A DNA stretch of 64,000 nucleotides from a bacterium. Its GTDB lineage: Bacteria > Patescibacteriota > Dojkabacteria > JAKAPS01 > JAJZLI01. The position numbers and the translations under genes are program-made. The notes beneath the pieces were generated by a model. It saw only the letters and a list, made by a program, of their open reading frames with translations, searched no databases and was not told where the DNA came from. This document shows, in pieces, positions 10,434 to 51,668 of the stretch (within the stretch, counting starts at the first letter, position 1; the number at the start of each line of letters is the position of its first letter). The DNA lies in NCBI GenBank assembly GCA_021785355.1, contig JAJYFR010000001.1, positions 1,003 through 65,002 on the forward strand, in the 5' to 3' direction.

Positions 10434-11345
10434 TTATTTTTCTATAACATTTAATTTTAAGAGCTGCAATAGGTATAGCAATTTTATTGAAATTATTATT
10501 ATAAAGTTTATCAGGACATTATTTTGAGTGAAATAATGTTTCTTATAAAAAATATACATTGCATCTGAATATGCTTTTATCCATCTTCTTTTTGTTTCTT
10601 TGTCTGCAGAAGAAAGTTTACTGCTAGATTTTTTTAATCCTCCAGAAGCTCCTTTATAATGTAGGATTGAAGTTTTAGGTGTATACATTATTTTCCAGTT
10701 ATTTTCTTTTATCCTAAAACATAAATCTAGATCTTCTCCCATAGCCCAAAATGATTCGTCAAAAAAAGCTGTTTTCGTATGCTTTTTATTTCCTGAAAAT
10801 ACTTCTTTTCTAATAAACATAAAAGCTCCTGTGCAAGCATCTATCTCTATTTCTCTGTTAATACTACCTTCTATGTTATAACCTTTAAATTTATCTGAAA
10901 ATTTTGATAGATTTAAAAGTTTACCTATACTATTTGAGATTGTAGGAAAACTTCTTCTACATGCTTTATCTAATTCTCCTGAAGGAAGAAATAGGGGACA
11001 AGTAGAAACACCTACATCTTTGTGTATCTCCATAAAATTATACATTTCACTCAGTGTATTTTTATTAAGTTTTGTATCTGGGTTAAGAATTAATATATAT
11101 CTTCCTTTTGCTATTTTTAAAGCCTGATTGTTAGCTTTTGAAAAACCTACATTATCTTTATTTTTTATATATATATACTCTCTACTGTCCTTAAACAATT
11201 TATACGTATCATCTCTTCCATTATCAATTATAAATATCTCTTTTTTAAGATTATCCTCACTTTGTTTTATAGAAAAAAGACAATCTGCAAGTAAAGATTT
11301 TACATTATATGTTACTATTATTATGCTAATATCTATGTTTTTCAT
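10434..11345 (-). CDS. Glycosyltransferase family 2
   Basis: The ISIIIVTYN N-terminal strand and a DNGRDDT DxD-like motif indicate a GT-A fold. Confidence 0.8.
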   Translation of the reverse strand: MKNIDISIIIVTYNVKSLLADCLFSIKQSEDNLKKEIFIIDNGRDDTYKLFKDSREYIYIKNKDNVGFSKANNQALKIAKGRYILILNPDTKLNKNTLSEMYNFMEIHKDVGVSTCPLFLPSGELDKACRRSFPTISNSIGKLLNLSKFSDKFKGYNIEGSINREIEIDACTGAFMFIRKEVFSGNKKHTKTAFFDESFWAMGEDLDLCFRIKENNWKIMYTPKTSILHYKGASGGLKKSSSKLSSADKETKRRWIKAYSDAMYIFYKKHYFTQNNVLINFIIIISIKLLYLLQLLKLNVIEK

Positions 11346-11417: not shown

Positions 11418-12188
11418 ATGTATTATATGAATAAAAATGACAGAGATCTTCTCTTAGAATTCGTAAAAACTGATTTTACCTTAAGATATAATAATTCTGT
11501 ATTAGGGTTTCTGTGGGTTGTTCTGAAACCTCTTTTAATGTTTACTGTAATGTATATAGTGTTTTCTCTTTTTTTAGGTACTAGTGTTAAATATTATGCA
11601 CTGTATCTTCTTTTAGGAATAATGCTTTATAATTTTTTTAATGAGGTTACTGTAAATGGAATGAATTCTCTCTTGCAGAAAAAAGATATAATGCTTAAAG
11701 TTAATTTTAAAAGATATATAGCAGTAATAGGTTCTTCTGTTATAGCATTAATAAATTTATTCTTTAATCTAATAGTATCTGTAGTTTTTTTTATATTTAA
11801 TAGAGTTCTTCCTTCTTTTGAGGGAATTTTATTTTTTCTCTTAGGGATAATAATTTTATATATCTTGGGAATAGCAATATCTTTTTTTATAAGTATTTTC
11901 TATGTAAAATTTAGAGATTTACAACATATATGGGAGATTGTTATGTTTGTTTTATTCTACCTTACCCCTATAGTCTATCCTATATCTTTAGTTCATGGTA
12001 AATTTGCATTAATAATAGATGCAAATCCTCTTACACATATTCTTAATTTTGCTAGACAATCTATAATCTACGGAAAGTATTTGTCTGTATATTCTACTAT
12101 GATAATATTTGTTTTATCTATAACACTTTTTATTTTAGGTTTCTATTTTTTTGAAAGAAGTATTAAAAAAATAGCTGAAGATTTTTAA
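11418..12188 (+). CDS. ABC-2 type polysaccharide export permease (Wzm/TagG-like)
   Basis: 256 aa with 6 predicted TM helices and the ABC-2 architecture. It lies immediately upstream of the cognate ATPase. Confidence 0.8.
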   Translation: MYYMNKNDRDLLLEFVKTDFTLRYNNSVLGFLWVVLKPLLMFTVMYIVFSLFLGTSVKYYALYLLLGIMLYNFFNEVTVNGMNSLLQKKDIMLKVNFKRYIAVIGSSVIALINLFFNLIVSVVFFIFNRVLPSFEGILFFLLGIIILYILGIAISFFISIFYVKFRDLQHIWEIVMFVLFYLTPIVYPISLVHGKFALIIDANPLTHILNFARQSIIYGKYLSVYSTMIIFVLSITLFILGFYFFERSIKKIAEDF

Positions 12189-12191
12189 TAT

Positions 12192-13358
12192 ATGGAAAAT
12201 GTAATAGAAGTAAAAAATATAACAAAAGAATTTAGATTGCCAATGGAAAAGAGATCTCAATTAAAAGATTACTTTGTCCATCCTTTCAAAAGAACAAAAT
12301 ACAGAGAGTTTAGAGCTCTTTCTAATATATCTTTTTCTGTTAAAAAGGGAGAATTTTTAGGAATAATAGGAAGAAATGGTTCTGGGAAAAGCACACTTTT
12401 AAAAATCATAGCAGGAATATATCTTCAAGATAAAGGAAAAATAAATGTAAAAGGAAAAATAGTTCCATTTCTAGAGCTAGGAGTTGGTTTTAATATGGAG
12501 CTTACTGCAAAAGACAATATATTCTTGAATGGAGTTATACTTGGTCTTTCTAGAGAAGAAGTTAAGAAGAAATATAAAGAAATTATAGAATTTTCAGAAC
12601 TTCAAGGTTTTGAAGAAACTCAACTTAAAAATTTTTCATCAGGAATGCAAGTCAGACTAGCTTTTTCAATAGCTATACAAGCTCATGGAGATATATATAT
12701 TTTAGATGAAGTTTTGGCAGTAGGGGATTTAGGGTTTCAACAAAAATGTTTTGATATGTTTAGAAAATTAAAATCTCAAGGGAAAACAATTATTTTTGTA
12801 TCTCACTCAATGGGTGCTATAGAAGAGTTTTGTGACAGAGTAATACTTTTGGATAAAGGAAATATAAGAAAAGAAGGAAATGTTTTGAATGTTGTAAAAA
12901 ATTATAGTGAAGTATTTTTTTCTAAAACAGAAAATACTTTTCTTGAAAAAGATGGTGAATTTTCATTAAAAATTCTAGGAAAAGATGGGAAAGATAAGAA
13001 TATTTTTGATTTTAATGAAGAATTAAGTATAAAAATCATATATAATTTAAAAAAAGAAATAATATCACCATTTTTTGAGATTATAATAACAAGAGAAGAT
13101 GGAATTATTATATCTGCTATAAATTCAAAATATTCAAATCTTTCTTTAGGTAGCATAAAAGGAAAGGGGGCTATATCTTTTAGCGTTAATAATTTAAATC
13201 TATATCCTTCTGAGTATAGTATATCTTTAGTTGTTTATTCTAAAGATTTAAATGAACAGATAGTTTTATTAGAGAAAATAAGAAATTTCAAAACCTTTCT
13301 TTCAAGAGACAATATAAAAGGGATTTTAGAAATAGAAGGAGAGTGGAGTTCTATTTAA
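12192..13358 (+). CDS. Polysaccharide export ABC transporter ATP-binding protein (Wzt/TagH-like) with a ~150-aa C-terminal beta-rich extension
   Basis: Walker A GRNGSGKST, the signature LSGGMQ-like FSSGMQ, and Walker B IYILDE are present. The C-terminal domain beyond aa ~240 is consistent with a Wzt carbohydrate-binding module. Confidence 0.8.
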   Translation: MENVIEVKNITKEFRLPMEKRSQLKDYFVHPFKRTKYREFRALSNISFSVKKGEFLGIIGRNGSGKSTLLKIIAGIYLQDKGKINVKGKIVPFLELGVGFNMELTAKDNIFLNGVILGLSREEVKKKYKEIIEFSELQGFEETQLKNFSSGMQVRLAFSIAIQAHGDIYILDEVLAVGDLGFQQKCFDMFRKLKSQGKTIIFVSHSMGAIEEFCDRVILLDKGNIRKEGNVLNVVKNYSEVFFSKTENTFLEKDGEFSLKILGKDGKDKNIFDFNEELSIKIIYNLKKEIISPFFEIIITREDGIIISAINSKYSNLSLGSIKGKGAISFSVNNLNLYPSEYSISLVVYSKDLNEQIVLLEKIRNFKTFLSRDNIKGILEIEGEWSSI

Positions 13359-14176
13359 ATTTTTCTTAATATCTTTATATATTCAGGAATAAAATCCTTA
13401 TTTTTAAAATAATAGATAGGCATCTTTAGAATATCGTATATTTTTGCAATCTTGATCTCTTTTTTCATATTATGTTTTTTTAGTAATTTGTATTTATTTC
13501 TTAGAGAATATTTTAAATTTCTCAAATTACTCTCGCTACCTCTTAAGTGTACACACTCTGCTGAACTTATTAATAAATTATCATAACCTTCTTTTCTTAA
13601 TCTTAATCCTAAATCAACATCTTCATAATAAGATCTGAAAGTTGTGTCAAAAAAACCTACATCATCTATTGCTGATCTACTATAAATTGCAGCTGCAGCG
13701 CAACATGCAAATACTTTTTTTATACCAAAATATTTTTTCTTGATATCATTTGCGCTATATCCAAAATTAAGATATATCCCTTCACTATCAATTTTTGTTT
13801 TCTTAGAATCTTTGTAATATATTCCTTGTGCAGAACCTATCGTAACATCTTTACTCATCACTTCTACTATTTTTTGTATATATGATGAATTTAGAAATGC
13901 ATCATGATTTAAAGTGAGTATATATTCACCTTTCGATATTAAAAATCCCTGCAAATTAGCCTTTGCAAATCCTACATTTTTTTTATTTTCTATTACTTTA
14001 ATGTTTTTTATACCCTTAATATATTTTAGAGTATGATCTTTTGAATTATTGTCAACTACAATAATCTCTATATCATTATAAGTCTGTTTTAAAACTCTAA
14101 GAATTGTCTCTTGTATAAATTTTTCACTATTATATGTAACTATTATCACACTTACCATAAATGCATTATATATCAT
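13355..14176 (-). CDS. Glycosyltransferase family 2
   Basis: The VSVIIVTYN strand and a DNNSKDHT DxD-like motif. Its stop overlaps the Wzt stop by 4 nt (convergent genes). Confidence 0.8.
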   Translation of the reverse strand: MIYNAFMVSVIIVTYNSEKFIQETILRVLKQTYNDIEIIVVDNNSKDHTLKYIKGIKNIKVIENKKNVGFAKANLQGFLISKGEYILTLNHDAFLNSSYIQKIVEVMSKDVTIGSAQGIYYKDSKKTKIDSEGIYLNFGYSANDIKKKYFGIKKVFACCAAAAIYSRSAIDDVGFFDTTFRSYYEDVDLGLRLRKEGYDNLLISSAECVHLRGSESNLRNLKYSLRNKYKLLKKHNMKKEIKIAKIYDILKMPIYYFKNKDFIPEYIKILRKI

Positions 14177-20341: not shown

Positions 20342-22147
20342 ATGAAATGTTATGGTAAAATCCTATATTGTATGAGCATTATAAGTCTATCTAAAAAAAG
20401 TATTTTCTATATTAAAAATTTTGGTGTAAAAGAATTTTTGAGAAAAACTAAAGGTTATCTTTCATCAAGGATTATTAGAAAGAAAGATAATATTGCATAT
20501 TCAAAATTAGTAAAGTTAGAAAAATTTAATGAGACAAAAATAAAAAAAGAGATTGAAAAATTCAAATATAAACCACTTCTTTCTATAATAATACCTACAT
20601 ACAATACCCCCATCCCTCTTATTAAAGAGACAATAGAGAGTGTTAAAAAACAGTTTTATAAAAATTTTGAAGTTATAGTATATGATGATGCATCAAAAGA
20701 TGAGAACTTTAAAAAATATCTAGAAAGAATTAATAAAGGTAATATTAAAGTTTTCTTATCAAAAAAAAATAATGGGATATCTAAATCTTCTAATATGGCA
20801 GTAAAAAAATCTAAAGGAGAGTATTTAGTATTTCTTGACCATGATGATACTCTCTCTCAAGATGCTTTATTTGAAACTGTAAAATTTCTAAATAATAAAA
20901 GAGTAGATTACATATATTCAGATGAAGATAAACTCTCTTATAAAGGAGAAAGAGAAGATCCTTTTTTTAAACCTGATTTTTCATATGATCTCCTACTTTC
21001 ATGTATGTATATAACACATATAAGGGTAATCAGAAAATCTACATTTTTAAAATTACATGGCTTAAATTCAAAATTTGATGGTGCTCAAGATTGGGATTTT
21101 GCACTAAGGTTATATGAGAATAAAGCTTTGTTTGGACATATTCCTAAAATTCTATACCACTGGAGAAAAACTGCTAATTCTACAGCTGATGATGCATCTG
21201 GTGCAAAATCATATGCATATAAAAGACAACAGACTCTAATAGAAGAACATTTAAAAAGAATGAGTGTAAATGCAATAGTAAAACAAGGGTTTTTTAAAGG
21301 TTCATATAAAGTTGAAAGAAATATAGAAGGCGAACCTAAAGTTGAGATAATAATTCCATTTAAAGATAAAGTAGAGTATCTAAAAGACTGTGTTGGAAGT
21401 ATAGAGAAGATAAGTACTTATAAAAATTATGAAATTTGTCTTATAAATAATGACAGTAGAGAAGAGGAAACTTTTGAATATCTTAAAAATTTAAAAAAAG
21501 ATCATAGAATTACTATTCTTGATTATAAAAAAGAATTTAACTATTCTTTGATTAATAATTTTGCTGTTAAAAAAACTGAAAGTGATTATCTCTTGTTTTT
21601 AAATAATGATACTAAAATAATAACACCACAATGGATAGAGGAGATGCTTTCACACGCTCAAAGAAAAGAAGTAGGGGCAGTAGGAGGTTTGCTTTTATAT
21701 AAAGATGGAACAATTCAACATGCAGGAATTGTTATTGGTTTAGGAGGAGTTGCTGCACATTCTCACAGAGGATTTCCTGGTGCATCAAATGGGCATGGAG
21801 GTCTAGTAAGTTGTGTGCGAGATGTTTCTGCTGTAACAGCAGCATGTATGATGGTTAAAAGATCGAAATTTCTTCAAATTAAAGGTTTTGATGAAAATTT
21901 AAAAATAGCATATAACGATGTGGATCTTTGCTTAAGACTTGAAAGATTAGGTTTAAGAAATATATATACTCCATATATGAAGATATATCATTATGAAACA
22001 AAAACAAGAAAAAAAACTAAGGGAGAAAATATTAAAGATACAGGATTTTTTTTGAAAAGATGGAAATATATTTTAAAAAAAGGAGATCCATTCTATAATC
22101 CTAATCTCACTCACTCAAAAGAAGATTACTCCTTTAGAGCAGTGTAA
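20342..22147 (+). CDS. Two-domain glycosyltransferase (tandem GT2 domains)
   Basis: 601 aa. Domain 1 has LSIIIPTYN...YDDAS...DHDD, and domain 2 has VEIIIPFKD...NNDSRE. This resembles polymerising two-GT2 enzymes. The exact start is uncertain. Confidence 0.75.
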   Translation: MKCYGKILYCMSIISLSKKSIFYIKNFGVKEFLRKTKGYLSSRIIRKKDNIAYSKLVKLEKFNETKIKKEIEKFKYKPLLSIIIPTYNTPIPLIKETIESVKKQFYKNFEVIVYDDASKDENFKKYLERINKGNIKVFLSKKNNGISKSSNMAVKKSKGEYLVFLDHDDTLSQDALFETVKFLNNKRVDYIYSDEDKLSYKGEREDPFFKPDFSYDLLLSCMYITHIRVIRKSTFLKLHGLNSKFDGAQDWDFALRLYENKALFGHIPKILYHWRKTANSTADDASGAKSYAYKRQQTLIEEHLKRMSVNAIVKQGFFKGSYKVERNIEGEPKVEIIIPFKDKVEYLKDCVGSIEKISTYKNYEICLINNDSREEETFEYLKNLKKDHRITILDYKKEFNYSLINNFAVKKTESDYLLFLNNDTKIITPQWIEEMLSHAQRKEVGAVGGLLLYKDGTIQHAGIVIGLGGVAAHSHRGFPGASNGHGGLVSCVRDVSAVTAACMMVKRSKFLQIKGFDENLKIAYNDVDLCLRLERLGLRNIYTPYMKIYHYETKTRKKTKGENIKDTGFFLKRWKYILKKGDPFYNPNLTHSKEDYSFRAV

Positions 22148-22414: not shown

Positions 22415-25387
22415 ATGAATGATAATATAAAAAATGATATTGTTGATAATATATCTAAGTTTTTAGAAAAAGAAAAAAGTTATGTTTTGAAAAAAGTTAA
22501 TTATGAAATTAATAATCCAGGAAGAACGGTTGCTAATGCTTGGAATAAGATAAACCCAAAAACAGAGATTGAAATAGAAGATTTCTATAAGAAAACTGAT
22601 TCATACATTTATGATCTGTTAATTGAAAGCTCTAGAACTTCACGTATTGAATGGAGAGATAGCATTCTTTTCTATTTATCTTTATATGAGGACAAAAAGA
22701 CATTATTGGATTATGGAGGAGGTGTTGGTACAGACGGCCTATACTTTCAAGAATGTGGATATGATACATCCTATTATGATTTAAAAGGGTTAACTTTTGA
22801 TTTTGCAAAGTATAGATTTAACAAATATAATTCAGAAATAAAGGTTCTTGAGAATAAGAATAATATTAAATCTTATGATTCTATTGTCTGCTTAGAAGTA
22901 ATGGAGCATTTAGTAGATCCAATAGACACTTTAAAATTTTTATATACTAAACTTAATAAAAATGGATTGTTATTTTTAACTCAATCGTTTGATTTAGTAT
23001 CAAAAGATTATCCTTCGCATCTAAAAGAAAATCAAAAATACAGTAAAGATTTTGAAAAAATTTGCGTAGATTTAGGCTTTACAATATTAGATAAAATTTC
23101 AAATGATAGGATTTATGTTTTAGGTAAATTTGGTGGAGTAGATATTATAGTTCCCACATATAATTCTTATGAATATGTATATGATTGTATAAATAGTGTA
23201 ATTGAAAATACCAATGATACTCCATATAGATTTGTATTTGTAAATGATTGTAGTACGGATATAAGAATTCATAAGTTTTTTAATAAAATAAAAAGAGATA
23301 AGGATATCTATATAAAAAATAAAAAAAACTTAGGTTTTGTTAAAACAACAAATATAGGTCTTTCTCAATCTAAAGAAAATGATGTGGTACTTCTAAATAC
23401 AGATACTGTAGTTACATATAAATGGTTATCTTCTATAAGAAAGGTAATTTATAAAAAACAAAAATATGCTACGGCTAATCCCCTTACAAATAATGCGTCT
23501 ATCTATTCTATCCTCGAGTTATCACACCTAGCAGATAACGTTAATATACAAAAAATAGGTAAAATAATTAATAAATCATCTATGCACTTATATCCAGAGA
23601 TACCAGTATCTGTTGGATTCTGTATGTATATAAAAAGAGAGGTACTCAATAAGATAGGTATACTAGATGAAATATTTGAAAGAGGCTATGGAGAGGAAGG
23701 AGATTTTTGCATGAGATGTAGAGTTAATGGTTACTCTCACATATTAGTAGATGATGCATTTGTATTTCATAAAGGAAGTGTATCCATGCTACTTAAAGGA
23801 GAGATTAAAAAGGGAGAATCTACAATAGAAGCTCATGAGAAAATTTTACATAAAAGATATCCTGATTATGGAGCTATAATAAATAATTTTATTGAGACAA
23901 GAGTTTTCAACAATATAAAGAATAGTATAATTCAATCTGTAACATCTTCTTTAAGCTTAAACAAGAGAAGGATATTGTATGTTATTCACTTTCCTATTAA
24001 CGGAGATAATATTGGAGGAACTGAATTTCATTTAAAAGATTTAGTAAATAATATTGATAATAAAATTGATTGCTATGTTTTGTATATTAAAGATAACAAG
24101 ATTATTGTTGAAGAGTATGTTGATAATATAAAGACTTCTTACCTTTTTGATATTCCATATCCTTTGCAATCTTATTTATTTAGGAATGATTTTTTATATT
24201 ACAAATATATAGAAATCTTAAAAATTCTCAATATAAACCTAATACATGTACAACATCTACTAAATAATAGTTTTGATATTATTTTTTCCGCTAAATCTTT
24301 AGGTATTCCTATTATTATGACAATACATGATTATTATTTGATTTCTCCAGATTACAATCTATTGTATAGATATAAGGACGAAATTTACAATAAAGATATA
24401 GTTCCAGATAGTAAATATTTTGAAAAGAAACTTCTTATTAAAAATTTTAAACAAGAAGATTGGCAAAAAAATATTAGTAAAGTAATATCATTAGTAAATC
24501 TTTTTATATTTCCTAGTGAGAGTGCAAAATCAGAATTTAGTAATGTTTATAATATAAAAAACTCATTAGTAATAGAACATGGAGAAACTTTAGTGCCAGA
24601 TAAAAATTTTAATATAGGATCAATCAAGATGGCAGATAAAAAGAAATTCAGTATTTTGTTCTTAGGATACACAAATGCATCTCAAAAAGGAAATAATACT
24701 TTAAAAAAAGTTATTACATCTCTTTCAAATAGAGGTGTAGAGATACATTTATTAGGAACAGAAGAACTCTACTGGAAGAATATTCATAAACAAAATTTGA
24801 TTTTACATGGATCTTACAAAAGAAATAATGTTGTGGAAATTTTGAAAAAAATTAATCCAGATATAATTGGATTAGTATCCATTTGGCCAGAAACTTTTTC
24901 ATATACCTTTAGTGAAGCATTGTTAGCAAAAATCCCGGTAGTCACTTTTCCTTTGGGTGCGGTACCAGAGAGGATAAAAAAATATGGGGGAGGTGGATTT
25001 ATACTAAATAGTCTGTCTTCTGATGAATTTATAAAGACTATCATCTCGCTAAAGAAAAATAATGTTGAATATAAAAAACTAAAAAATGAGACTAAAGAAA
25101 TACATGTTAAAACTTTAAATGAAAATATTAAAGAGTATTTAGATTTATATGAAAAATATGTTTATATCAAAGATTTGAATCATACTAATGAAGATATAAA
25201 GAGAATATCTTCTGAGCATTATTCTACTTATATAGAGGAAAAAAGATTAATACAAAACGCTATAAATGAGAAAAATTTATTATTATTTCACTTAAATAAT
25301 ATACAAAATAGTATTATATGGAAATATATTATTAGTAATTATCTGAGATTAAAAAATGTTTTATATGAAATTAAAAAAATACGATAA
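22415..25387 (+). CDS. Trifunctional fusion: class I SAM-dependent methyltransferase, then GT2, then GT4 glycosyltransferase
   Basis: 990 aa. The N-terminal LDYGGGVGTDG is a methyltransferase motif I. The middle VDIIVPTYN...VNDCSTD is a GT2 domain. The C-terminal PETFSYTFSEALLAKIPVV is a GT4 EX7E-like motif. Confidence 0.75.
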   Translation: MNDNIKNDIVDNISKFLEKEKSYVLKKVNYEINNPGRTVANAWNKINPKTEIEIEDFYKKTDSYIYDLLIESSRTSRIEWRDSILFYLSLYEDKKTLLDYGGGVGTDGLYFQECGYDTSYYDLKGLTFDFAKYRFNKYNSEIKVLENKNNIKSYDSIVCLEVMEHLVDPIDTLKFLYTKLNKNGLLFLTQSFDLVSKDYPSHLKENQKYSKDFEKICVDLGFTILDKISNDRIYVLGKFGGVDIIVPTYNSYEYVYDCINSVIENTNDTPYRFVFVNDCSTDIRIHKFFNKIKRDKDIYIKNKKNLGFVKTTNIGLSQSKENDVVLLNTDTVVTYKWLSSIRKVIYKKQKYATANPLTNNASIYSILELSHLADNVNIQKIGKIINKSSMHLYPEIPVSVGFCMYIKREVLNKIGILDEIFERGYGEEGDFCMRCRVNGYSHILVDDAFVFHKGSVSMLLKGEIKKGESTIEAHEKILHKRYPDYGAIINNFIETRVFNNIKNSIIQSVTSSLSLNKRRILYVIHFPINGDNIGGTEFHLKDLVNNIDNKIDCYVLYIKDNKIIVEEYVDNIKTSYLFDIPYPLQSYLFRNDFLYYKYIEILKILNINLIHVQHLLNNSFDIIFSAKSLGIPIIMTIHDYYLISPDYNLLYRYKDEIYNKDIVPDSKYFEKKLLIKNFKQEDWQKNISKVISLVNLFIFPSESAKSEFSNVYNIKNSLVIEHGETLVPDKNFNIGSIKMADKKKFSILFLGYTNASQKGNNTLKKVITSLSNRGVEIHLLGTEELYWKNIHKQNLILHGSYKRNNVVEILKKINPDIIGLVSIWPETFSYTFSEALLAKIPVVTFPLGAVPERIKKYGGGGFILNSLSSDEFIKTIISLKKNNVEYKKLKNETKEIHVKTLNENIKEYLDLYEKYVYIKDLNHTNEDIKRISSEHYSTYIEEKRLIQNAINEKNLLLFHLNNIQNSIIWKYIISNYLRLKNVLYEIKKIR

Positions 25388-26771
25388 ATCAATAATTTTT
25401 ATAATTTTCACTATATTTATATCTTTGTTAATTTGGTGGATATCTTTACCTGTATTTCAATCTTTTGATGAACCCGCTCATTTTGCTCAGATACAACATA
25501 TAGCAGAAACTAACCAATATGATATGAATAATACAATAAGTAATGAGCAATTTTTATTAGAAAATTTTTTAAAATTTAATATATTTAATGCTAATGTGAA
25601 TTCTCAATATCATTTTATAAGTAAAAACTATAATATAAGAAAATATATATTTGATAAAAAATCAAATACTAAGATTAATAGAAATACATTTACACATGTA
25701 GCTATAGTTGAGAATTACCCCCCACTTTATTATTATATATCAGCAGTTGTATATAAAATTACTAAACAAAAGAGTATATTTTTTAGTATAGAAGCTATTC
25801 GTTTTATATCTATATTCTTTTTTCTAATTACATTGATATTCTCCTATAAAATTGCTTTATTAATATTTCCAGAAGATATCTGGATACAATATTGTACAGT
25901 AATTTTTATAGGGTTTTTGCCTATGTTATCGCAATTGTCAGTATCTATTAATCCAGATAATTTATTAATAACATTGTTTACGCTGTTTACTTATTATTCA
26001 CTTAAACTATTAAGATCTAGCGGTTTTTCTCAAAAAACAAATATAGTATTAGTAATAATATTATTATTAGGTTTCATGACAAAACAAAGTGCTTATATAC
26101 TATGTATTCCTTATTTGTTTTTAATAGGGTATAAATTAAAAAATAAAAAACTGTCATTAAGATATAAACAAATATTAATTTTAGGTTTTTTTTTCTTAAT
26201 ATTAATATTTTTCTTTTTAAAAGGATTTACATTAATATTTGATTATATAAGTGGTACATTTAATAGTTGGAAATATTTTTCTCCACTAGACTATATTTAC
26301 AAATATTCTACAAATTATTTTTTTAATGGATATGTATTTCAATCTTTTTGGGGAGCTTTTGGTTGGGGATTTTTTAAATTTCCTCAACAATATTATGATA
26401 TTTTATACTTATTTTTAAGTACATCAATTATTGGGATAATAATATATTACTATAATTTAACTTATATAACTAAAAAAAATAGGAAACTTTTGTATACAAT
26501 TAATTATTTAATAATATTATCATTAACATATTCTTTATTTCTTGTATATTTAGATTTTATATCTATAAAAAATACTGGGACATTTTTTATACAAGGGCAT
26601 TATTTTTTTGAAATAATAACTGCGAATACAATTCTGTTTCTTTTCGGAATAGGAGAATTTTTTAAAAGGTTTAAATTAAAAAATACAATCTATTTCATAA
26701 TAATAATAGGAATAGTTTTGTTAAATACAACAGGATTATTTCAAATATTAATAAATAAATTCTATTTATAG
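25356..26771 (+). CDS. Polytopic membrane glycosyltransferase of the GT-C fold (ArnT/PMT-like) or related glycan polymerase
   Basis: 471 aa with more than 10 TM helices. An SFDEPAH acidic motif in the first predicted external loop is typical of GT-C enzymes. The start may be the Met at 25365 instead; the given start overlaps the upstream gene by 32 nt. Confidence 0.55.
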   Translation: MFYMKLKKYDKSIIFIIFTIFISLLIWWISLPVFQSFDEPAHFAQIQHIAETNQYDMNNTISNEQFLLENFLKFNIFNANVNSQYHFISKNYNIRKYIFDKKSNTKINRNTFTHVAIVENYPPLYYYISAVVYKITKQKSIFFSIEAIRFISIFFFLITLIFSYKIALLIFPEDIWIQYCTVIFIGFLPMLSQLSVSINPDNLLITLFTLFTYYSLKLLRSSGFSQKTNIVLVIILLLGFMTKQSAYILCIPYLFLIGYKLKNKKLSLRYKQILILGFFFLILIFFFLKGFTLIFDYISGTFNSWKYFSPLDYIYKYSTNYFFNGYVFQSFWGAFGWGFFKFPQQYYDILYLFLSTSIIGIIIYYYNLTYITKKNRKLLYTINYLIILSLTYSLFLVYLDFISIKNTGTFFIQGHYFFEIITANTILFLFGIGEFFKRFKLKNTIYFIIIIGIVLLNTTGLFQILINKFYL

Positions 26772-26778
26772 GTGGATT

Positions 26779-27594: not shown

Positions 27595-27903
27595 AATATT
27601 ATGGGATTAAATTTGGGCATTCTAAATATTTTTCTAAATTTGTTTAGGTATAAGTAATATAATTCTTAATATGAAAATGGTAATATTAATCTTAACTTTT
27701 CTAAATTTAGAGGAATAGATAAAGAGGGGAAAATATAATCTAAAGAATTAAAAAAAATAAGTAATCTATTATTTGGAAGAATATCTAGAATTTTATATTT
27801 TAAATATTTTTATATTATTTCAATTTATGCGAAAATACTAGAGGATATATTTGTCATAAAAAAGCTTTAAATAGAGTAAATACTTAACATTCAGTATGTG
27901 TTA

Positions 27904-27932
27904 TTGACAAAAACTATAGGTTTCTATACAAT
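27904..27932 (+). promoter_or_regulatory. Sigma70-like promoter TTGACA-17-TACAAT with the same TTGACAAAAACTATAGG extension as at 1008
   Basis: TTGACA at 27904..27909 and TACAAT at 27927..27932, about 30 nt upstream of the ATG at 27963. Confidence 0.4.
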
Positions 27933-27962
27933 ATTATTTAATTAAATCATTTTATAATATAT

Positions 27963-28659: not shown

Positions 28660-29841
28660 ATGAAAAAAAATAAAATATTATTTGTATTACAACGTTTTTA
28701 CCCCTCAGTTGGCGGAACTCAGAATTATAGTTTTCTGTATGCAAAAGAACTTACAAAATTAGGATATGACGTTGATATAGTTACTACAGATTCATTAGAT
28801 AATTTAGATGTTAGGGGTTTTTCTTCAGGAAGAAGATTTACTTTTAAGAGTAAAAATAATAAATTATTAAAAAAAGAAACAATAGGAGGTATTAATATCT
28901 TTAGATTCTCTCCCATATTTCAATTTTTTACAGTAATGATAAATCCTTCCATGTTTTTTTTCTTACTTTTAAATATACAAAAATATTATATTGTCCATAC
29001 ATATTGTTATATGTATGCTGAACCTGATATGGTATCCGTCATTTCACTTATATTTAGAAATATAAAGATTGTTCATTCTCCCCAAGACATAGATGTTCCT
29101 TTTGAAGGATTTTTAAAAAAATTAAAAGAAACATTTTATGATAAATCTTTTGGCAGGTTAACTCTAAAAAGATCTTCAAAAATAATTGTATTAACTAATG
29201 AATTAAAAAAAAGAGTAAAAAAAATGAATATAGAATCAGGAAAGATAGAGATACTACCCATTGGTATAGATTTTAATAATTATAAAACAACTAATAATAA
29301 TAAGTCTATAGATATTTTATTTGTAGGTAGATTAACCGAATATAAGGGAGCCCAATATATAATAAAAACATTAGAGATGTTAAAAAATGATGGAATATTC
29401 CCAAATACTTTAATTATTGGAAAAGATTATGGATATAAAAATATTCTTGAAAAAAATATTGAAGATTATGAATTACAGAATATATCAATAAATACAAATG
29501 TTAGAGATAAAGATTTAATAAATTTTTACAGATCAAGTAAATTCTTTATATTTCCTTCATCAGGTGAAGGTTTTGGAGGTGTAGTTTTGGAAGCAATTAG
29601 CGGTGGTTGTTACCCTATTTTATTAAAAGAAAAAGGACTTAAAGATTTACTTGGTAATATAGGTGGATATTCTATAGATAAAGATAAAGATATATCTAAA
29701 CAAATATATATGTTTTTAAAAGAAAATCACACTAAAGATTTTTCTAATGAAGTTACAGTGTTACAAAATATAGTTAAAAAAGATTATAATTGGACAAATA
29801 TTGCAAAAAAATTAGTTCAAATTTATGAAAAAATACAATAA
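28660..29841 (+). CDS. Glycosyltransferase family 4 (GT-B, group 1)
   Basis: 393 aa. The N-terminal VGGTQNY and C-terminal FPSSGEGFGGVVLEAISGGCYPI (EX7E) motifs. Confidence 0.8.
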   Translation: MKKNKILFVLQRFYPSVGGTQNYSFLYAKELTKLGYDVDIVTTDSLDNLDVRGFSSGRRFTFKSKNNKLLKKETIGGINIFRFSPIFQFFTVMINPSMFFFLLLNIQKYYIVHTYCYMYAEPDMVSVISLIFRNIKIVHSPQDIDVPFEGFLKKLKETFYDKSFGRLTLKRSSKIIVLTNELKKRVKKMNIESGKIEILPIGIDFNNYKTTNNNKSIDILFVGRLTEYKGAQYIIKTLEMLKNDGIFPNTLIIGKDYGYKNILEKNIEDYELQNISINTNVRDKDLINFYRSSKFFIFPSSGEGFGGVVLEAISGGCYPILLKEKGLKDLLGNIGGYSIDKDKDISKQIYMFLKENHTKDFSNEVTVLQNIVKKDYNWTNIAKKLVQIYEKIQ

Positions 29842-30985
29842 TAAAAGAGATAAGGTTGGCAGTTTAAAAGTATGTATTATACATAATATTGTTTCTCCTT
29901 ATAGATTACCTTTATTTGAAGAATTAAATAAAAATGTAAACTTGACTGTGTATTTTTGTAAATCTATCACAAAAGATAGAGTATGGAAGTTTGATCTAGG
30001 TGAGTATAATTTTAAATATGATATTCTTAGAGGATTTTCTTTCGGCCCAATTATTATAAACACAAATGCTCTGTGGAAATTAATAAAAACTAATTTTGAT
30101 GTTGTTATTATTAATAGTGATCCAGATGTAGCTCCGATAGTTTTTATGGCGTTTATATTATCAAAATTACGTAGAAAAAAAATTATTTTATGGTCTGAGG
30201 CTATTAATAAAGAGGTACATTTTTTTCCTAGCTTAGTATATGGTAATACTAATGCTTTTAATAAAATAATACTGTACTTACTGACTTTTTTTATTACCAA
30301 ATATAGGAAAATATATCTACGTGGGGCTGATCATTTTTTAGCATTTAGTAATAAAGCTAGGGAATTTTTGATAGAGAATAAAGTAAGTGTAGAAAAGATT
30401 ACTCGTACATATGAAATTATACCACTAGATCAGTTACCTGAACATAGTAAAAAATTTGTAAGGAATGGTAAAACATTTATATATGTAGGGTATCTCATTC
30501 CTCGTAAGAACATTCAATTACTAATAAGGGCATTTAAAAAAATTGATGATAATAAAGCTAAATTATATATAGTTGGAACTGGACCATCTGAAATTCAACT
30601 AAAGAAATTATCTAAGAATGATAATAGAATTATATTTACTGGAAATAAAGAAGGAGTAGATAAATCAAATTTATATGCCACTTCTGATATATTAGTTTTA
30701 CCTTCACTGGATGACTCTTGGGGACTAGTTGTTAATGAGGCAATACATTATGGTCTTGGAGTAATCACTTCTGATACAATAGGTGCAACAGAATTAATTG
30801 ATACAAACACAGGCTTGATTTTTAAATCTAATAATCTAGAACAATTATATTCTGCAATGACTGAACTAATTAATGACAAAAAAAAACTTAAATCTATGCA
30901 AGAACACAATTTAGGGAATAGTGGAGTATCTGATATAAAAAAAGCTTCCAAAGGCTTTTTGAGAGCAATTTGTAAGGTATTATGA
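29825..30985 (+). CDS. Glycosyltransferase family 4
   Basis: 386 aa. LPSLDDSWGLVVNEAIHYGLGVI is an EX7E-like motif. The start overlaps the upstream gene by 17 nt, suggesting an operon. Confidence 0.8.
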   Translation: MKKYNNKRDKVGSLKVCIIHNIVSPYRLPLFEELNKNVNLTVYFCKSITKDRVWKFDLGEYNFKYDILRGFSFGPIIINTNALWKLIKTNFDVVIINSDPDVAPIVFMAFILSKLRRKKIILWSEAINKEVHFFPSLVYGNTNAFNKIILYLLTFFITKYRKIYLRGADHFLAFSNKAREFLIENKVSVEKITRTYEIIPLDQLPEHSKKFVRNGKTFIYVGYLIPRKNIQLLIRAFKKIDDNKAKLYIVGTGPSEIQLKKLSKNDNRIIFTGNKEGVDKSNLYATSDILVLPSLDDSWGLVVNEAIHYGLGVITSDTIGATELIDTNTGLIFKSNNLEQLYSAMTELINDKKKLKSMQEHNLGNSGVSDIKKASKGFLRAICKVL

Positions 30986-31009
30986 TAATTAGTAATTGAC
31001 AAGAAATAT

Positions 31010-32209
31010 ATGACAAAAAATAAGATATTTATAGTTTCTACTGAATTTCCTGCACTGACAGGTGGAACTCCTGCAAGAAATTTTAATCTTATAAACCAAA
31101 TAGCAAAAAATAAGTTTTCAGTATCTCTTTTTAGTGTTTTTGATAAAAAATCAGAACCTTTTTTAAATTCTACAAAAAAAAAATTAAATATTCCTATTTA
31201 TACAAAAAAAAAGATATCTTTTAATTTATTTAAGAAAATATATATATCTATTATAAAAAGAGTAGTCCCTTATATGGAAGAATTTAATGATTTAGATTTC
31301 AAAACTTTCATTTTAAAAAAAATAGAAGAAGAAAAACCTTCTATTTTGCAGTTAGAACAATTAAATGCATATTTTATGATGAAAGATCATATTCCATACC
31401 TTAAAGATAAAGGAATCAAAATTATCCTCGATGCACATAATATAGAAGAAATAGCATTAAAAGGGGCTATCTCTTCTTTTGGTTTTATTAAAAGAAATGT
31501 AGCAATGCGGATCCTCCCAAATTTGAAAAAAATAGAAAAAGAAGCTTTTGAATATGTGGATTTAATTTTTGCATGTTCTGATTATGATAAAAATATTATT
31601 GCAAGAATAGTGAGTTCTTCAAAAGTAGTGGTTATCCCTAATGGCGCAGATATTTCTTATTTTACTCTTGAGAAAAAACCAAAAAAACAGTCTTTGATTT
31701 TTATGGGAGGGTGTAATTATCCTCCTAATGAAGAAGCTCTAAAATTTTATTTTTCTCGAATTCATGAAGAAATAAAAAAAATATACAATATAAAAATATA
31801 TGTTTTATGCGGAAAACCTCCTAACTGGTTATCTATATTAGCAAAAACTGACAAGAGTATTATATTGCCAGGATTTGTGCCTGATGTAAGACAATATATA
31901 CATAAAGCATCAATTGGTATTTGTCCTATTATTTCAGGTTCAGGTACTCGTCTTAAAATACTAGAGTATATGAGTTGTGGAAAACCAGTTATTTCTACAA
32001 GCAAAGGAGCTGAAGGAATACAAGTTGAAGATAAAAAGAATATAATTATTGCAGATACTGTTAGCACTTTTATTGAAGCAGTAAATTTACTTTTTACTAA
32101 TGCTAATATATTTGATAGATATAGTAAAGAAGCCAGAAAGCTTATAGAACTAGAGTATGATTGGGATATAGTTGGTAAAAAATTACAAAATATTTATAAA
32201 CATATATGA
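31010..32209 (+). CDS. Glycosyltransferase family 4
   Basis: 399 aa. TGGTPARNF at the N-terminus and a C-terminal GT-B Rossmann domain containing PIISGSGTRLKILEYMSCGKPVIST. Confidence 0.75.
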   Translation: MTKNKIFIVSTEFPALTGGTPARNFNLINQIAKNKFSVSLFSVFDKKSEPFLNSTKKKLNIPIYTKKKISFNLFKKIYISIIKRVVPYMEEFNDLDFKTFILKKIEEEKPSILQLEQLNAYFMMKDHIPYLKDKGIKIILDAHNIEEIALKGAISSFGFIKRNVAMRILPNLKKIEKEAFEYVDLIFACSDYDKNIIARIVSSSKVVVIPNGADISYFTLEKKPKKQSLIFMGGCNYPPNEEALKFYFSRIHEEIKKIYNIKIYVLCGKPPNWLSILAKTDKSIILPGFVPDVRQYIHKASIGICPIISGSGTRLKILEYMSCGKPVISTSKGAEGIQVEDKKNIIIADTVSTFIEAVNLLFTNANIFDRYSKEARKLIELEYDWDIVGKKLQNIYKHI

Positions 32210-32215
32210 TATAAT

Positions 32216-33385
32216 GTGCATATCCAGTTTTATAAATTTATTAATGTGAAAAAATCTATTTTAATAATTTCAGATTCAACCATATTCGGCGGAGCTGAGA
32301 AAAACTTATACTTATTACTCAAATTTTTAGATAAAACTAAATTTAATCTTACCTTGGCATGTACAGATTCTAAAGGAACAGAAATTCTATTAGATAAAAT
32401 AAAAGATTTAAAAGTGAAAATTGTTAGATTTCCAGCCGCAAGATATAGAGAGTTTGATATTAGAACTACATATGAACTTATAAAAATAATATATAATATT
32501 GAACCCGATATAGTATATGTAAATTTTGTACATCATTATGATTGTAAACCTGTTATGTTTTCTATATTTCCTTTTTTTAGGAAATTTGCAGTTATTGCAG
32601 CTGAACAATTAGTCCCAAATGAGGATGAAGTTAATATTTTCAAGAGAAAATTAAATCACCTTTGGATTTATATTATTGATAAATATATTACTATATTTAT
32701 TATGGTATCTAATAAAAATAAGGAAACTTTTATAAATAAGTTCCACATAAAAAATAAAAAAATTAAAGTAATTAAAAATTCTATAGAAATAAAAAGATTT
32801 AAAAAGAATAATATTTTTAGAAAAGAGATGAATTTTAAAAAAGAAGATAGAATAATAGTTACTATTGCCAGGTTAACTTCTCAGAAAGGGCATATATACT
32901 TAATAAAAGCAATAAAAAAATTGGTGAAAAAATATAGAGATTTAAAATTTATTTTTGTTGGTGAAGGAGAAATTGAATTTATTTTAAAAAAAATAATAAA
33001 AGAGTACTTTTTAGATAACAAAATATTTTTTTTAGGATTTCGAGAAGATATTGATAATATATTAAACTCTTCAGATATATTTATACTTCCATCTCTTTAT
33101 GAAGGTTTGCCTCTCTCTATTTTAGAGGCAATGGAACATTCTTTGCCAGTAATTGCAACGAATGTTGATGGAAATGCAGAAGTTATACAAGATAAATATA
33201 ATGGATACTTGGTTAAAAAAAAGAGTGTTAACGGTTTGTATAATTCAATATCAAAATTATTAGATAATTACGATATTGAATCTCAATATTTAGGATGTAA
33301 TGCTTTTTTGACATTGAAAAAAGATTTTAATATAAAGAAAAATATTAAAATCTTTGAAGAATTATTTCTTTCTTTAAATTCATAA
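32216..33385 (+). CDS. Glycosyltransferase family 4
   Basis: 389 aa. FGGAEKN at the N-terminus and LPSLYEGLPLSILEAMEHSLPVIAT (EX7E). It begins with GTG at 32216; a second GTG at 32246 is an alternative start. Confidence 0.75.
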   Translation: MHIQFYKFINVKKSILIISDSTIFGGAEKNLYLLLKFLDKTKFNLTLACTDSKGTEILLDKIKDLKVKIVRFPAARYREFDIRTTYELIKIIYNIEPDIVYVNFVHHYDCKPVMFSIFPFFRKFAVIAAEQLVPNEDEVNIFKRKLNHLWIYIIDKYITIFIMVSNKNKETFINKFHIKNKKIKVIKNSIEIKRFKKNNIFRKEMNFKKEDRIIVTIARLTSQKGHIYLIKAIKKLVKKYRDLKFIFVGEGEIEFILKKIIKEYFLDNKIFFLGFREDIDNILNSSDIFILPSLYEGLPLSILEAMEHSLPVIATNVDGNAEVIQDKYNGYLVKKKSVNGLYNSISKLLDNYDIESQYLGCNAFLTLKKDFNIKKNIKIFEELFLSLNS

Positions 33386-33538
33386 TATATAGTTTAGAAC
33401 AATTTTTAATTTGAAATAAAATCTATTATATATTATAAAAGAACTGTAAATTGGGACTAAAATTGATTTATCAAATATTCCTGTTTGAACAACAATATAT
33501 TAATTATTTATAAAAAATATTAAGTAATAAAGAATTCT

Positions 33539-34423
33539 ATGTTAATAAATGATGAAATTTGTGCAATTATTGTCACATATAATCCAGGTAAAGAGGTTGT
33601 ATTTAATGTAAAGGAGTTGTATAGGCAAATAAAAACAATAGTTATTGTTGATAATGGATCCATATCTATTAGTAAAAAATATATAGAACAAATTGGAGAT
33701 TTATATAAATGTAAAATTATATATAATGGTGAAAATTTGGGTATAGCTACAGCACTTAATATTGGGGTAAAATATGCAATTAAGAATGGTTATAAATGGG
33801 TTGCTACTTTTGATCAAGATAGTACAGTAACCCAAAATATGATTAAAGTCATGGAAAATGTATATAAAGCTTTTCCTGAGAAAGAAACATTAGCAATTAT
33901 ATCTCCAAAACATATACAAAAAAAATTATTTAAAGAAGATATAATGCTATCAATTAAAAATTCATCTAGGTATCACATACAAATTCCTGTAATGGCATCA
34001 GGAAATATTATAAGAATTGATATATTCAAAGATGTTGGATTTTTCAACGATGACTTATTTATTGATTATGTAGATTATGAATTTTGCTTTAGATGTAAAA
34101 TTAAGGGATATCTGATATTAGAAGCAGATGATGCAATTTTAAAACATCATTCAGGAAATCTAAAAACTCATTTATTTATGGGGAAGAAATTTACTGTAGC
34201 AAACTATAGTTATATTAGGAGGTATTATATATCTAGAAATAAGATATATATATATAAGAAGTATGGTAAATTTTTCCCAAAATTTATGTTGCTGCATGCA
34301 TTAGATTCAATAAAGGAAATTGTAGGAATCATATTTTTTGAAAAAAATAAAGCAAAAAAATTTATATATATAATTAAAGGCATAAATGATGGTGTGAAAA
34401 ATAAATTTGGAAAAATGCTATAA
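33539..34423 (+). CDS. Glycosyltransferase family 2 (rhamnosyltransferase/WbbL-like)
   Basis: 294 aa. ICAIIVTYNPG and VDNGS, with DQD as the DxD motif. Confidence 0.8.
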   Translation: MLINDEICAIIVTYNPGKEVVFNVKELYRQIKTIVIVDNGSISISKKYIEQIGDLYKCKIIYNGENLGIATALNIGVKYAIKNGYKWVATFDQDSTVTQNMIKVMENVYKAFPEKETLAIISPKHIQKKLFKEDIMLSIKNSSRYHIQIPVMASGNIIRIDIFKDVGFFNDDLFIDYVDYEFCFRCKIKGYLILEADDAILKHHSGNLKTHLFMGKKFTVANYSYIRRYYISRNKIYIYKKYGKFFPKFMLLHALDSIKEIVGIIFFEKNKAKKFIYIIKGINDGVKNKFGKML

Positions 34424-42410: not shown

Positions 42411-42544
42411 TTCTTCAATAATATCATGAATTTATTATATACATAATGATATGAAGGAGAATATCACGGCTTATATGGAGAGTCAAGAATATTATAAGCT
42501 TTTGATACTAATATGGTATAATATGTCTTATAATATAAAACTAT

Positions 42545-43129: not shown

Positions 43130-44012
43130 TCACAGTACAGAGGTAAATAGTGAAGTGCCTTCTTTCTTTGAATCTTATTCACAAGGACCTTTTCATAAAA
43201 TTGATAGACTAATGAAGTTTGATACCAAACGTAATATTCCAGAAGGTATATATTTGGATAATAGATTTGTTAAATTAAAAATGAGTAATCTTGAGTCTTT
43301 AGAAATAAGGCAAGAAGATCAACCTATAATGAGAGGTGGTAGTGCACATAATATATCTTTTTTTACACTTACATGTTGTTCTTTTCAAGGAGAGAAAACT
43401 ATACCTGTAGCAGTAAAGGAATATAAAAATACAAGAAATGGGGTAGAGGAGATTAGGAAAATTAGAGAATTACAAAAAATGGGGATATCTACATTTTCTC
43501 CTGTAATGTATCTTAAAACTTCTAAAGCATCATATTTTTTTACTAAAACAAATTTTAATGTTACATCTCTTGATAGATATAATTGGGAAGATTTATATAA
43601 TGAGGGTGGAGTAAATTATAATATTTCTCTAGATCTACTTTTGGGTATATCTAAATCTTTGGCATTGATTCATTCATTAGGTATTCTTCATGGAGATCCT
43701 CAGTTAAAAAATTTTGTTGTAGATACTCAAGGTAAAGTGAAATTAATAGACTGGGAAGCTTGTTATATTCATAACGAAAGGAGTACAGAAGAATTAGCAA
43801 TTAAAGATTTAGGGATACTTTATAAATCGTGTATAGGTTTATATGAAAACTCTAAAAATAATGTGTTCAAAGGTAAGGGTGCAGATTCTTGGTCTATGTT
43901 CAAAAGACTTGTTATAGAATCTTATGTGATTTATCTTATGGAAAAAAATATTTATATTGATGAAGAAAAGTTGGAGAGTATTTTAAGAAAACATCTAAAT
44001 ATTACTTTTTAA
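43119..44012 (+). CDS. Protein-kinase-like fold enzyme of the lipopolysaccharide kinase (Kdo/WaaP/RIO) type
   Basis: 297 aa. A VAVKEYK lysine lies in a beta3-like strand, with the catalytic loop ILHGDPQLKNFVV (HGDxxxxN) and the metal-binding LIDWE (DFG-equivalent Asp). Confidence 0.55.
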   Translation: MEFDHSTEVNSEVPSFFESYSQGPFHKIDRLMKFDTKRNIPEGIYLDNRFVKLKMSNLESLEIRQEDQPIMRGGSAHNISFFTLTCCSFQGEKTIPVAVKEYKNTRNGVEEIRKIRELQKMGISTFSPVMYLKTSKASYFFTKTNFNVTSLDRYNWEDLYNEGGVNYNISLDLLLGISKSLALIHSLGILHGDPQLKNFVVDTQGKVKLIDWEACYIHNERSTEELAIKDLGILYKSCIGLYENSKNNVFKGKGADSWSMFKRLVIESYVIYLMEKNIYIDEEKLESILRKHLNITF

Positions 44013-45138: not shown

Positions 45139-45195
45139 TGAGGAACATTGTATCATAATAAAAGCTCATTTTTAACATTTTAAAAAAATATATAT

Positions 45196-51663: not shown

Positions 51664-51668
51664 ATGAA

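Follow-up and report, generated by a model that had tools for sequence, protein, structure and literature searches.

In a 64,000-nucleotide stretch of a Dojkabacteria genome (Patescibacteriota; assembly GCA_021785355.1, contig JAJYFR010000001.1, positions 1,003 to 65,002; hereafter the window), the gene at 25356..26771 was found by structure prediction to encode a GT-C-fold glycosyltransferase (GT) of the DUF2142 family, in a tail-less (short) form. Sequence comparison leads us to conclude that this enzyme and a 271-amino-acid (aa) membrane protein encoded directly downstream are probably two parts of one enzyme, arising by fission of a common fused form, with an added ectodomain. The GT-C gene is also translationally coupled to a gene for a 990-aa methyltransferase–GT2–GT4 protein, whose 3′ end extends 32 nt into the GT-C gene. 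A preliminary description of the window had recognized the GT-C enzyme and two candidate donor synthases, and had missed both the coupling to this gene of a Wzm/Wzt glycan operon and the dedicated downstream partner.

Fold, acidic motif and partner protein of the GT-C enzyme

The GT-C gene is an ATG-to-stop open reading frame (ORF) of 471 aa, and the G+C content around it is only 19–23%, so that stop codons are frequent there. A database search returned an identical protein on record, encoded on a 757-kb contig, and relatives at 50–52% and 37% identity, one of which is titled ‘Patescibacteria group bacterium DUF2142 domain-containing protein’. Because of the identical entry, these relatives and a full-length DUF2142 match, 25356..26771 is a real gene and not a chance ORF. 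The match to Pfam DUF2142 (PF09913) scored 54.4 bits (gathering cut-off, 30.1 bits) and aligned residues 21–421 with positions 1–392 of the 395 in the model. This was the sole Pfam match of the protein, with no match to PF02366 (PMT), PMT_2, the MIR domain or Wzy_C.

No match to a PDB sequence was found, whether the query was the protein or a 17-sequence profile. An AlphaFold2 (AF2) model built from the 17-sequence alignment had a mean pLDDT of 80.5 and a pTM of 0.86. The model contained approximately 11–12 long helices, and at least seven strong segments were seen in the hydropathy profile. Its sole poorly defined part was a short loop of low confidence (residues 75–114), and neither a large loop domain nor a periplasmic domain in cis was seen. 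When the model was compared with the PDB by Foldseek, ArnT was the best match (5ezm and 5f15; probability 1.0), followed by STT3, ALG12, PglB, ALG9, ALG3, Pmt4, DPY19 and AftA at a probability of ~1.0. The high-probability matches were all GT-C enzymes; for ArnT and PMT, the identity was 11–13% and the TM-scores were 0.35–0.49. An identity as a Wzy, WaaL or SEDS protein was rejected, as WaaL (7tpg) reached a probability of 0.18 with TMq 0.17 and RodA a probability of 0.18, and transporters gave probabilities of at most 0.18 and TM-scores of at most 0.24. The preliminary description of a polytopic GT-C-like enzyme, to be distinguished from an O-antigen ligase or polymerase by a fold search, was borne out by this result.

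The SFDEPAH acidic loop motif noted previously was located at residues 36–42, within ...QSFDEPAHFAQ..., directly after the first transmembrane (TM) helix (residues 11–30). P32, D38, E39 and H42 are invariant in the 17-sequence alignment, as are a YPPLYY-type stretch (121–126) and R149. The pattern P-x5-DE-x2-H was present in 140 of 147 family representatives, which are the best-scoring ones of the GT-C family. The N-terminus is predicted to be cytoplasmic because it is Lys-rich, and D38-E39-x2-H42 on the first outside loop is a putative catalytic motif. The protein thus combines the characters of the GT-C superfamily, namely, a polytopic topology, an acidic motif on the first extracytoplasmic loop and fold similarity, and we assign it to GT-C because of the fold matches and the acidic motif, together with the lack of resemblance to WaaL or RodA. 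The acidic motif after the first TM helix and a PPL-type motif are shared with ArnT (GT83) and PMT (GT39), which use a polyprenyl-monophosphate sugar as the donor; unlike these enzymes, the window GT-C has no Pfam PMT or PMT_2 match, MIR domain or cis periplasmic domain. The family is very large: a threshold of E ≤ 1e-3 gave 22,600 representative clusters, and one of E ≤ 1e-30 gave 1,915. Its more distant relatives have Pfam PMT or PMT_2 matches.

The partner gene follows the GT-C gene after a gap of 7 nt that contains an AGGTGG ribosome-binding site. The encoded protein is predicted to comprise an N-terminal TM helix, approximately 165 aa outside the membrane, an amphipathic helix, an MSEYKPGFM motif and two TM helices. 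Its AF2 model was of moderate quality (pLDDT 66.5), with an outside domain rich in beta strands, and a fold search with this ectodomain returned generic beta-sandwich modules of approximately 100 residues alone (E at least 0.01), which were not used for functional assignment. In the two closest relatives of the locus, L001 and L002, a gene of ~270 aa lies immediately downstream of the GT-C gene and encodes an orthologue of the partner: L001:11331-12155 (NCBI JBTSQR010000001.1; 274 aa, 36% identity, E 2e-37), which is unannotated in the public record, and L002:11416-12216.

Long members of the GT-C family (~520 aa) end in ‘...N-x-F-x3-Q-x-SQYKP-x-F-F-K-G’, followed by one TM helix and a basic C-terminus. 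A hidden Markov model (HMM) built solely from nine such fused tails was searched against 1,179 six-frame ORFs, and it detected the L002 partner (E 8e-8) and the L001 partner (E 6e-7), with all other ORFs at E values of at least 0.1. In a larger locus set, the tail HMM detected a third separate protein (L007:9527-10246; E 3e-7), whose gene comes directly after that of P0013, a tail-less GT-C from a Moranbacteria genome. In all, the E values for these three partners ranged from 2e-6 to 8e-8. A partner-family profile of four split partners retrieved 61 clusters of 200–265 aa, none with a Pfam domain and all labeled ‘hypothetical’, across which the motif residues S, Y, K, P and F are invariant. 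Three further members of this family are each encoded immediately downstream of a tail-less GT-C of ~480 aa, and a partner adjoined a tail-less GT-C in all seven loci examined (7/7). Among the 147 representatives, the fused tail was present in 108 (median length, 524 aa) and absent from 39 (median, 486 aa), and it was confined essentially to low-G+C, Patescibacteria-type loci. By way of the orthologues, these profile matches show that the partner is very probably a trans-encoded source of the ‘SQYKP + TM helix’ tail, which is fused to the GT-C in about three quarters of the sampled representatives and very probably provided by a separate ectodomain protein in the rest. We read the two proteins as parts of one enzyme because of the tail HMM matches to the partner orthologues, the adjacency in 7/7 loci and the difference in length between the fused and tail-less forms.

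Another ORF with the same TM layout as the partner (63187..64000) was considered and rejected as an unrelated type IV secretion system (T4SS) pilin. The G+C content is 0.19 over positions 26001-28000, which cover the end of the GT-C gene, the partner gene and a 368-nt gap 3′ of it, compared with ~0.25 elsewhere. This drop may be due to membrane-protein codon bias or to a different origin of the gene pair.

Candidate donor synthases and survey of related loci

The two GT2 genes proposed in the preliminary description to make lipid-linked sugars were both found to be real. The GtrB/ArnC-like GT2 with a C-terminal TM domain starts at 45156, and the earlier start at 45138 is an internal ATG six codons into 44002..45156. 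Against PDB sequences, this protein matched dolichol-phosphate mannose synthase (DPMS; 5mlz) at E 7e-18, GtrB (5ekp) at 1e-11 and ArnC at 2.5e-10. It is predicted to consist of a GT-A domain and four TM helices, as is the Pyrococcus furiosus DPMS 5mlz, which we take to have four TM helices. The soluble DPM1-like GT2 (55696..56406) is ~236 aa long and has no TM segment, and the longest ORF at this position extends to 56496, from a TTG. Its match to DPMS 5mlz (E 2.4e-29) spanned the entire catalytic domain, and GtrB and ArnC came next, so that the same three enzymes were the best sequence matches of both GT2s among solved structures. A control GT2 encoded next to the soluble one (54947..55699) matched chondroitin synthase and similar enzymes instead of the DPMS class, and the previously raised possibility that the two GT2s belong to non-lipid-linked families was not supported.

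In NCBIfam, the four-TM GT2 matched AglJ (3.5e-42), a Dol-P-hexose transferase and PpgS, all below the cut-offs, and the soluble GT2 weakly matched AglJ, PpgS and PgfS. The PpgS scores of the two were 76 and 48 bits, respectively, against a cut-off of 370. Both are thus candidate members of the polyprenyl-phosphate sugar synthase class, whose donor sugar and lipid specificity are not readable from sequence because the E values were only 1e-10 to 1e-29 and the equivalog cut-offs were missed.

As described previously, a MurJ-like gene is adjacent to the DPM1-like gene, and the two are divergent. At 615 aa, the MurJ-like protein is unusually long, and its score of 211 bits is below the 235.55 required by NCBIfam for MurJ. 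The start of its gene overlaps the longest form of the divergent GT2 ORF. It is the sole MOP protein of the window. In agreement with the preliminary description, no GtrA-like small four-TM ORF was found in the window, nor was a Polysacc_synt protein. Gene searches of the window also found no priming phosphoglycosyltransferase, GtrA, Wzx or WpsA/B-type primer, and there is no second polytopic GT-C-like protein in it.

To see whether DUF2142 GT-Cs go with such synthases, 80 related loci were collected from reference genomes with an 8-sequence alignment as the query, and the neighboring ORFs were classed by their best match to the proteins of the window. Of 48 Patescibacteria-type loci, 29 had a DPMS-like GT2 within 10 kb of the GT-C gene and 22 had one within 3 kb; for ‘other’ GT2 types, the corresponding numbers were 8 and 1. 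A profile of 46 neighboring GT2s matched DPMS at 3e-50, GtrB at 1e-47 and ArnC at 2e-45, compared with 1.6e-28 for the next GT2 structure. Small soluble GT2s of the 55696 class are also neighbors of the GT-C family in Patescibacteria. Clustering was strong in Solirubrobacterales, where 17 of 18 DPMS-like GT2 genes were located within 3 kb of the GT-C gene against 8.6 expected (P ~1e-5). These GT2s have ~390 aa and four C-terminal TM helices, as in the 44002 GT2, and their neighbors are Pfam-confirmed DUF2142 GT-Cs (E 1e-24 to 1e-35). The 44002 protein shares 41% identity over 376 aa with a Solirubrobacterales GT2 beside DUF2142 GT-Cs. Judged by this clustering, the shared architecture and the 41% identity, the predicted enzyme class of 44002..45156 is a recurrent neighbor of DUF2142 GT-Cs. 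Since its orthologues adjoin DUF2142 genes elsewhere, 44002..45156 is favored over 55696..56406 as the most likely donor-making enzyme for the GT-C.

Four Solirubrobacterales loci (L046, L052, L060 and L069) each carry two to four tandem DUF2142 GT-C paralogues. A single 390-aa four-TM GT2 lies beside the array in L052 and L069, and none was present within the flanks covered in L046 and L060. The layout of L052 and L069 would fit a single lipid-sugar donor that serves several transferases outside the membrane.

Proposed decoration of an exported polymer and rival readings

The surroundings of the GT-C gene point to a surface glycan. A Wzm/Wzt exporter is encoded 12 kb upstream, and Wzm/Wzt pairs recur near GT-C family members, being directly adjacent in L023, L033 and L057. 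L001 and L002 keep the double GT2 near the GT-C gene (918–928 bits to that of the window) and carry a GT2–GT4 fusion beside it (417–425 bits) without the methyltransferase domain. In the reading that we favor, to which we give an even chance, the GT-C and its partner decorate or extend an exported glycan with single sugars from a polyprenyl-phosphate donor. The cytoplasmic GT2 and GT4 enzymes would build a polyprenyl-linked glycan, which the methyltransferase domain would probably cap; a methyl cap is probable because Wzt carries a cap-binding Wzt_C domain. Wzm/Wzt would export the capped glycan, and the GT-C with its partner would add single sugars from a polyprenyl-phosphate sugar outside the membrane. 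One of the two DPMS-like GT2s, preferably 44002..45156, would produce the donor at the inner face, and an enzyme other than those recognized in the window would flip it. The outside domain of the partner would probably hold the acceptor glycan, as soluble domains of PglB, Emb and AftD do in cis. In this scheme, four elements are our inference: which donor and which acceptor are used, how the dispersed genes are connected and what the ectodomain does. A polymer is preferred to a protein as the acceptor because the GT-C gene is coupled to the 990-aa gene in a GT operon with Wzm/Wzt. As for the three-part logic of donor synthesis and outside transfer put forward in the preliminary description, the GT-C, the synthase classes and the pairing at the family level stood, and the three genes were not tied together here.

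Similar arrangements are known in other bacteria. GT-C enzymes decorate an ABC-exported rhamnan from C55-P-sugars: in the three- and four-component systems for cell-wall polysaccharides of Gram-positive bacteria (Lactococcus lactis CsdA/CsdB/CflA and Streptococcus pyogenes GacI/J/K/L), a GT-A enzyme makes the C55-P-sugar and a GT-C enzyme transfers the sugar, outside the membrane, onto the ABC-exported polymer (PMC9574508). The window resembles these systems in its GT-C, its Wzm/Wzt exporter and its two candidate GT-A enzymes, which are of the appropriate class. Unlike in these systems, the synthase genes are not adjacent to the GT-C gene, no GtrA or Wzx was seen in the window, the GT-C is of the DUF2142 type and not of the CsdB/GacL type, and the host is a Patescibacteria bacterium; the tail and ectodomain subunit encoded in trans is absent from the Csd/Gac systems. 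Compared with the GtrB/GtrA/GT-C three-component system, the window has the synthase class and the GT-C, and a GtrA or Wzx flippase was not found in it. In Mycobacterium tuberculosis, the polyprenyl-P-GalNAc synthase PpgS (Rv3631) and the GT-C Rv3779, which adds GalN to arabinogalactan, are encoded far apart, and the acceptor is this cell-wall polymer (PMC3485146). The phylum and the polymer are different from those of the window, and the window GT2s match NCBIfam PpgS weakly. Rv3779 presumably also sits by the GT and ABC-exporter genes of its polymer. The dispersal of the window genes is no objection in itself, because the gene for the lactococcal flippase CflA lies apart from csdAB (PMC9574508) and PpgS is encoded far from Rv3779 (PMC3485146).

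Several observations weigh against the decoration of a polymer by this GT-C. A flippase for the monosaccharide carrier was not found in the window, and the synthase genes are 17 and 30 kb from the GT-C gene, with no direct link between them. The window’s own partner (SEYKPGFMTN) was below significance against the tail HMM, so its relation to the fused tail is transitive, through orthologues at 36% identity. The clustering of synthases in Patescibacteria-type loci was marginal when all copies in the 10-kb flanks were counted (24/49 within 3 kb against 19.1 expected; P ~0.1). L001 and L002 have no DPMS-like GT2 within 10 kb, and 0/7 split-type loci have one within 5 kb compared with 25/39 fused-type loci (Fisher P 0.002, with the seven representing two clades). 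Because split-type loci lack adjacent synthases, polymer decoration is held as the best guess and whole-glycan transfer or polymerization as a live rival.

In this rival, which we consider possible and clearly less likely, the GT-C and its partner would be a glycan polymerase or ligase that polymerizes a complete lipid-linked oligo- or polysaccharide or hands it over in one piece to the final acceptor. The supplier would be Wzm/Wzt here and Wzx in Moranbacteria, and the DPMS-like GT2s would serve other pathways. We weigh it because split loci are without adjacent synthases and because of precedents in lactic acid bacteria. The split-type loci carry no recognizable Wzy or WaaL. Those of Moranbacteria have GT1/GT4 genes, nucleotide-sugar enzymes, a priming transferase and Wzx flippases around the GT-C gene, and in the clade of the window the GT-C sits among cytoplasmic polymer-building GTs. 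PglB and STT3 are among the fold matches, and the enzyme would act in the manner of an oligosaccharyltransferase or of the Wps proteins. In L. lactis, the DUF2142 GT-Cs WpsI and WpsJ are the proposed polymerase and the proposed polysaccharide-to-rhamnan transferase, and WpsI works with the proposed co-polymerase WpsH, which has a large outside loop between TM helices (PMC9574508, PMC12599335). In Streptococcus thermophilus, the rgp loci likewise pair a DUF2142 protein with a large GT of several domains (PMC9746298). The window matches Wps in the Pfam family, in a GT-C gene that adjoins one for a membrane protein whose outside loop is large (a resemblance in layout only) and in the position of the GT-C gene among the cytoplasmic GTs of a surface-glycan cluster. 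Unlike Wps, the window has no Wzx and no WpsA/B-like C55-P-GlcNAc primer pair, its exporter is of the ABC type, and the partner ectodomain is a small beta-sandwich rather than of the helical Wzz type. Furthermore, a polymer handled by an ABC exporter is finished in the cytoplasm and needs no polymerase, the wider GT-C family is clearly synthase-linked, and the roles of WpsI, WpsH and WpsJ are themselves models and not demonstrated activities. In an unlikely special form of this reading, the tail-less GT-C and its ectodomain subunit would together be a glycan ligase or polymerase made of two proteins and special to Patescibacteria. It would attach or polymerize, at the cell surface, complete lipid-linked glycans that ABC or Wzx exporters deliver and would replace Wzy, WaaL or LCP proteins in minimal genomes, and the fused-tail relatives would be ordinary monosaccharide decorators.

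The acceptor could instead be protein, with the GT-C adding single sugars from a polyprenyl-phosphate donor to Ser/Thr of secreted or membrane-anchored proteins, as PMT/Ppm1 does in actinobacteria and as PgfS/PgfM1 and GtrB/PgtC2 do in streptococci. GT-A/GT-C pairs have this function in streptococci (bioRxiv 10.1101/2024.05.05.592596). In the surveyed relatives, 40 of the 46 neighboring GT2s match NCBIfam PgfS, and the distant relatives of the GT-C with PMT or PMT_2 matches point in the same direction. The DE motif and the HPPL-like YPPLYY stretch are what we take to be common motifs of the PMT/ArnT-type families. The secreted window proteins named as acceptors in the preliminary description are only moderately Ser/Thr-rich (19–22% Ser+Thr in several of them) and have no long Ser/Thr-rich disordered regions, the richest 40-residue stretch reaching 45% Ser+Thr. 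The GT-C gene lies within a polymer-building GT operon, to which it is translationally coupled and which is kept in relatives, with no gene for an acceptor protein adjoining it, and its product has neither a MIR domain nor a PF02366 match; protein O-glycosylation is accordingly improbable. That the protein is no glycosyltransferase at all, but a Wzy/WaaL-type polymerase or ligase, a SEDS protein, a transporter or an inactive relic, would suit the lack of any PDB sequence match, by protein or by profile. This is highly improbable in view of the high-probability fold matches, all to GT-C enzymes, the low values for WaaL, RodA and transporters, the acidic motif invariant in the alignment and retained in nearly all representatives, the intact ORF and the conserved synteny.

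We found no published work on GT-C glycosyltransferases of Patescibacteria, and the DUF2142 literature that was found does not deal with Patescibacteria; in the passages on DUF2142 that were consulted, there is no mention of a tail/ectodomain subunit encoded in trans or of its fission/fusion relation to the long form. In its original form the finding is unsurprising, because both the enzyme class and the three-part logic are well established; the gene adds a new member from Patescibacteria to DUF2142. Patescibacteria live attached to host cells, and their surface chemistry is almost uncharacterized. The locus provides a testable outline of how a surface glycan may be made in them, by cytoplasmic assembly, ABC export and GT-C modification outside the membrane. 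The partner defines an unannotated family of GT-C accessory subunits and a natural fission/fusion pair, which could guide structural work on how DUF2142 enzymes hold their acceptors, including WpsI and WpsJ, the phage-receptor enzymes of lactococci.

Glycan operon and further genes of the window

The coordinates of the genes discussed are listed in Table 1. The spacing between the genes in 28660..34423 is tight, from −17 to 153 nt. A promoter and terminator scan of the region performed no better than chance, with 143 sites against 145 expected from shuffles.

Table 1. Genes of the glycan operon, GT-C, partner, candidate synthases and MurJ-like protein in the window
Feature	Coordinates	Strand	Basis or remark
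GT2	10434..11345	-	Pfam
Wzm, ABC-2 permease	11418..12188	+	Pfam PF01061
Wzt ATPase with C-terminal Wzt_C glycan-cap-binding domain	12192..13358	+	Pfam PF00005, PF14524
GT2	13355..14176	-	Pfam
Double GT2, 601 aa, first gene of the + strand GT operon	20342..22147	+	Pfam, two GT2 stretches
Methyltransferase–GT2–GT4/GT1 fusion, 990 aa, cytoplasmic	22415..25387	+	Pfam domains
GT-C (predicted)	25356..26771	+	Pfam DUF2142, fold
Partner membrane protein, 271 aa	26779..27594	+	No Pfam match
Four GT4 genes	28660-29841, 29825-30985, 31010-32209, 32216-33385	+	Pfam
GT2	33539..34423	+	Pfam
GT2 with four predicted C-terminal TM helices (candidate synthase)	44002..45156	-	GT2 domain, TM prediction
Soluble DPM1-like GT2, ~236 aa (candidate synthase)	55696..56406	-	No TM segment
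MurJ-like, 615 aa	56469..58316	divergent from DPM1-like GT2	211 bits vs NCBIfam MurJ cut-off 235.55

The best promoter-like site (27904-27932) is in the gap after the partner gene and precedes an ORF (27963-28502, +) encoding a 179-aa soluble protein with no family match. At the end of the GT operon, a further ORF (34841-35545, +) encodes a 234-aa three-TM protein, also with no family match. A subtilase (15870-17945, -), a GH18 chitinase/endoglycosidase-like protein (17945-20041, -) and a third protein (5408-6889, +) are all secreted and share C-terminal RCC1_2/DUF5818/PH_20-like repeats. The subtilase and the GH18-like protein are possibly surface enzymes that are displayed on the glycan or act together with it, because their genes are located between Wzm/Wzt and the GT operon.

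A second glycan sub-cluster at 40766-45156 contains a SAM methyltransferase, a GT4 (-), a 194-aa protein of unknown type and a WaaP/Kdo-like kinase. The kinase gene is convergent with the four-TM GT2 gene, with an overlap of 11 nt. The separate kinase and methyltransferase genes recall what we take to be the chain-terminator functions of WbdD, and the pair fits the cap-binding Wzt_C domain. Elsewhere in the window, a HerA/TraG-like coupling ATPase and a Replic_Relax relaxase are encoded in 49247-52388 and the T4SS pilin (PF18895, E 3.7e-8) in 63187-64000, which suggests a type IV secretion or conjugation-like apparatus in a small genome.

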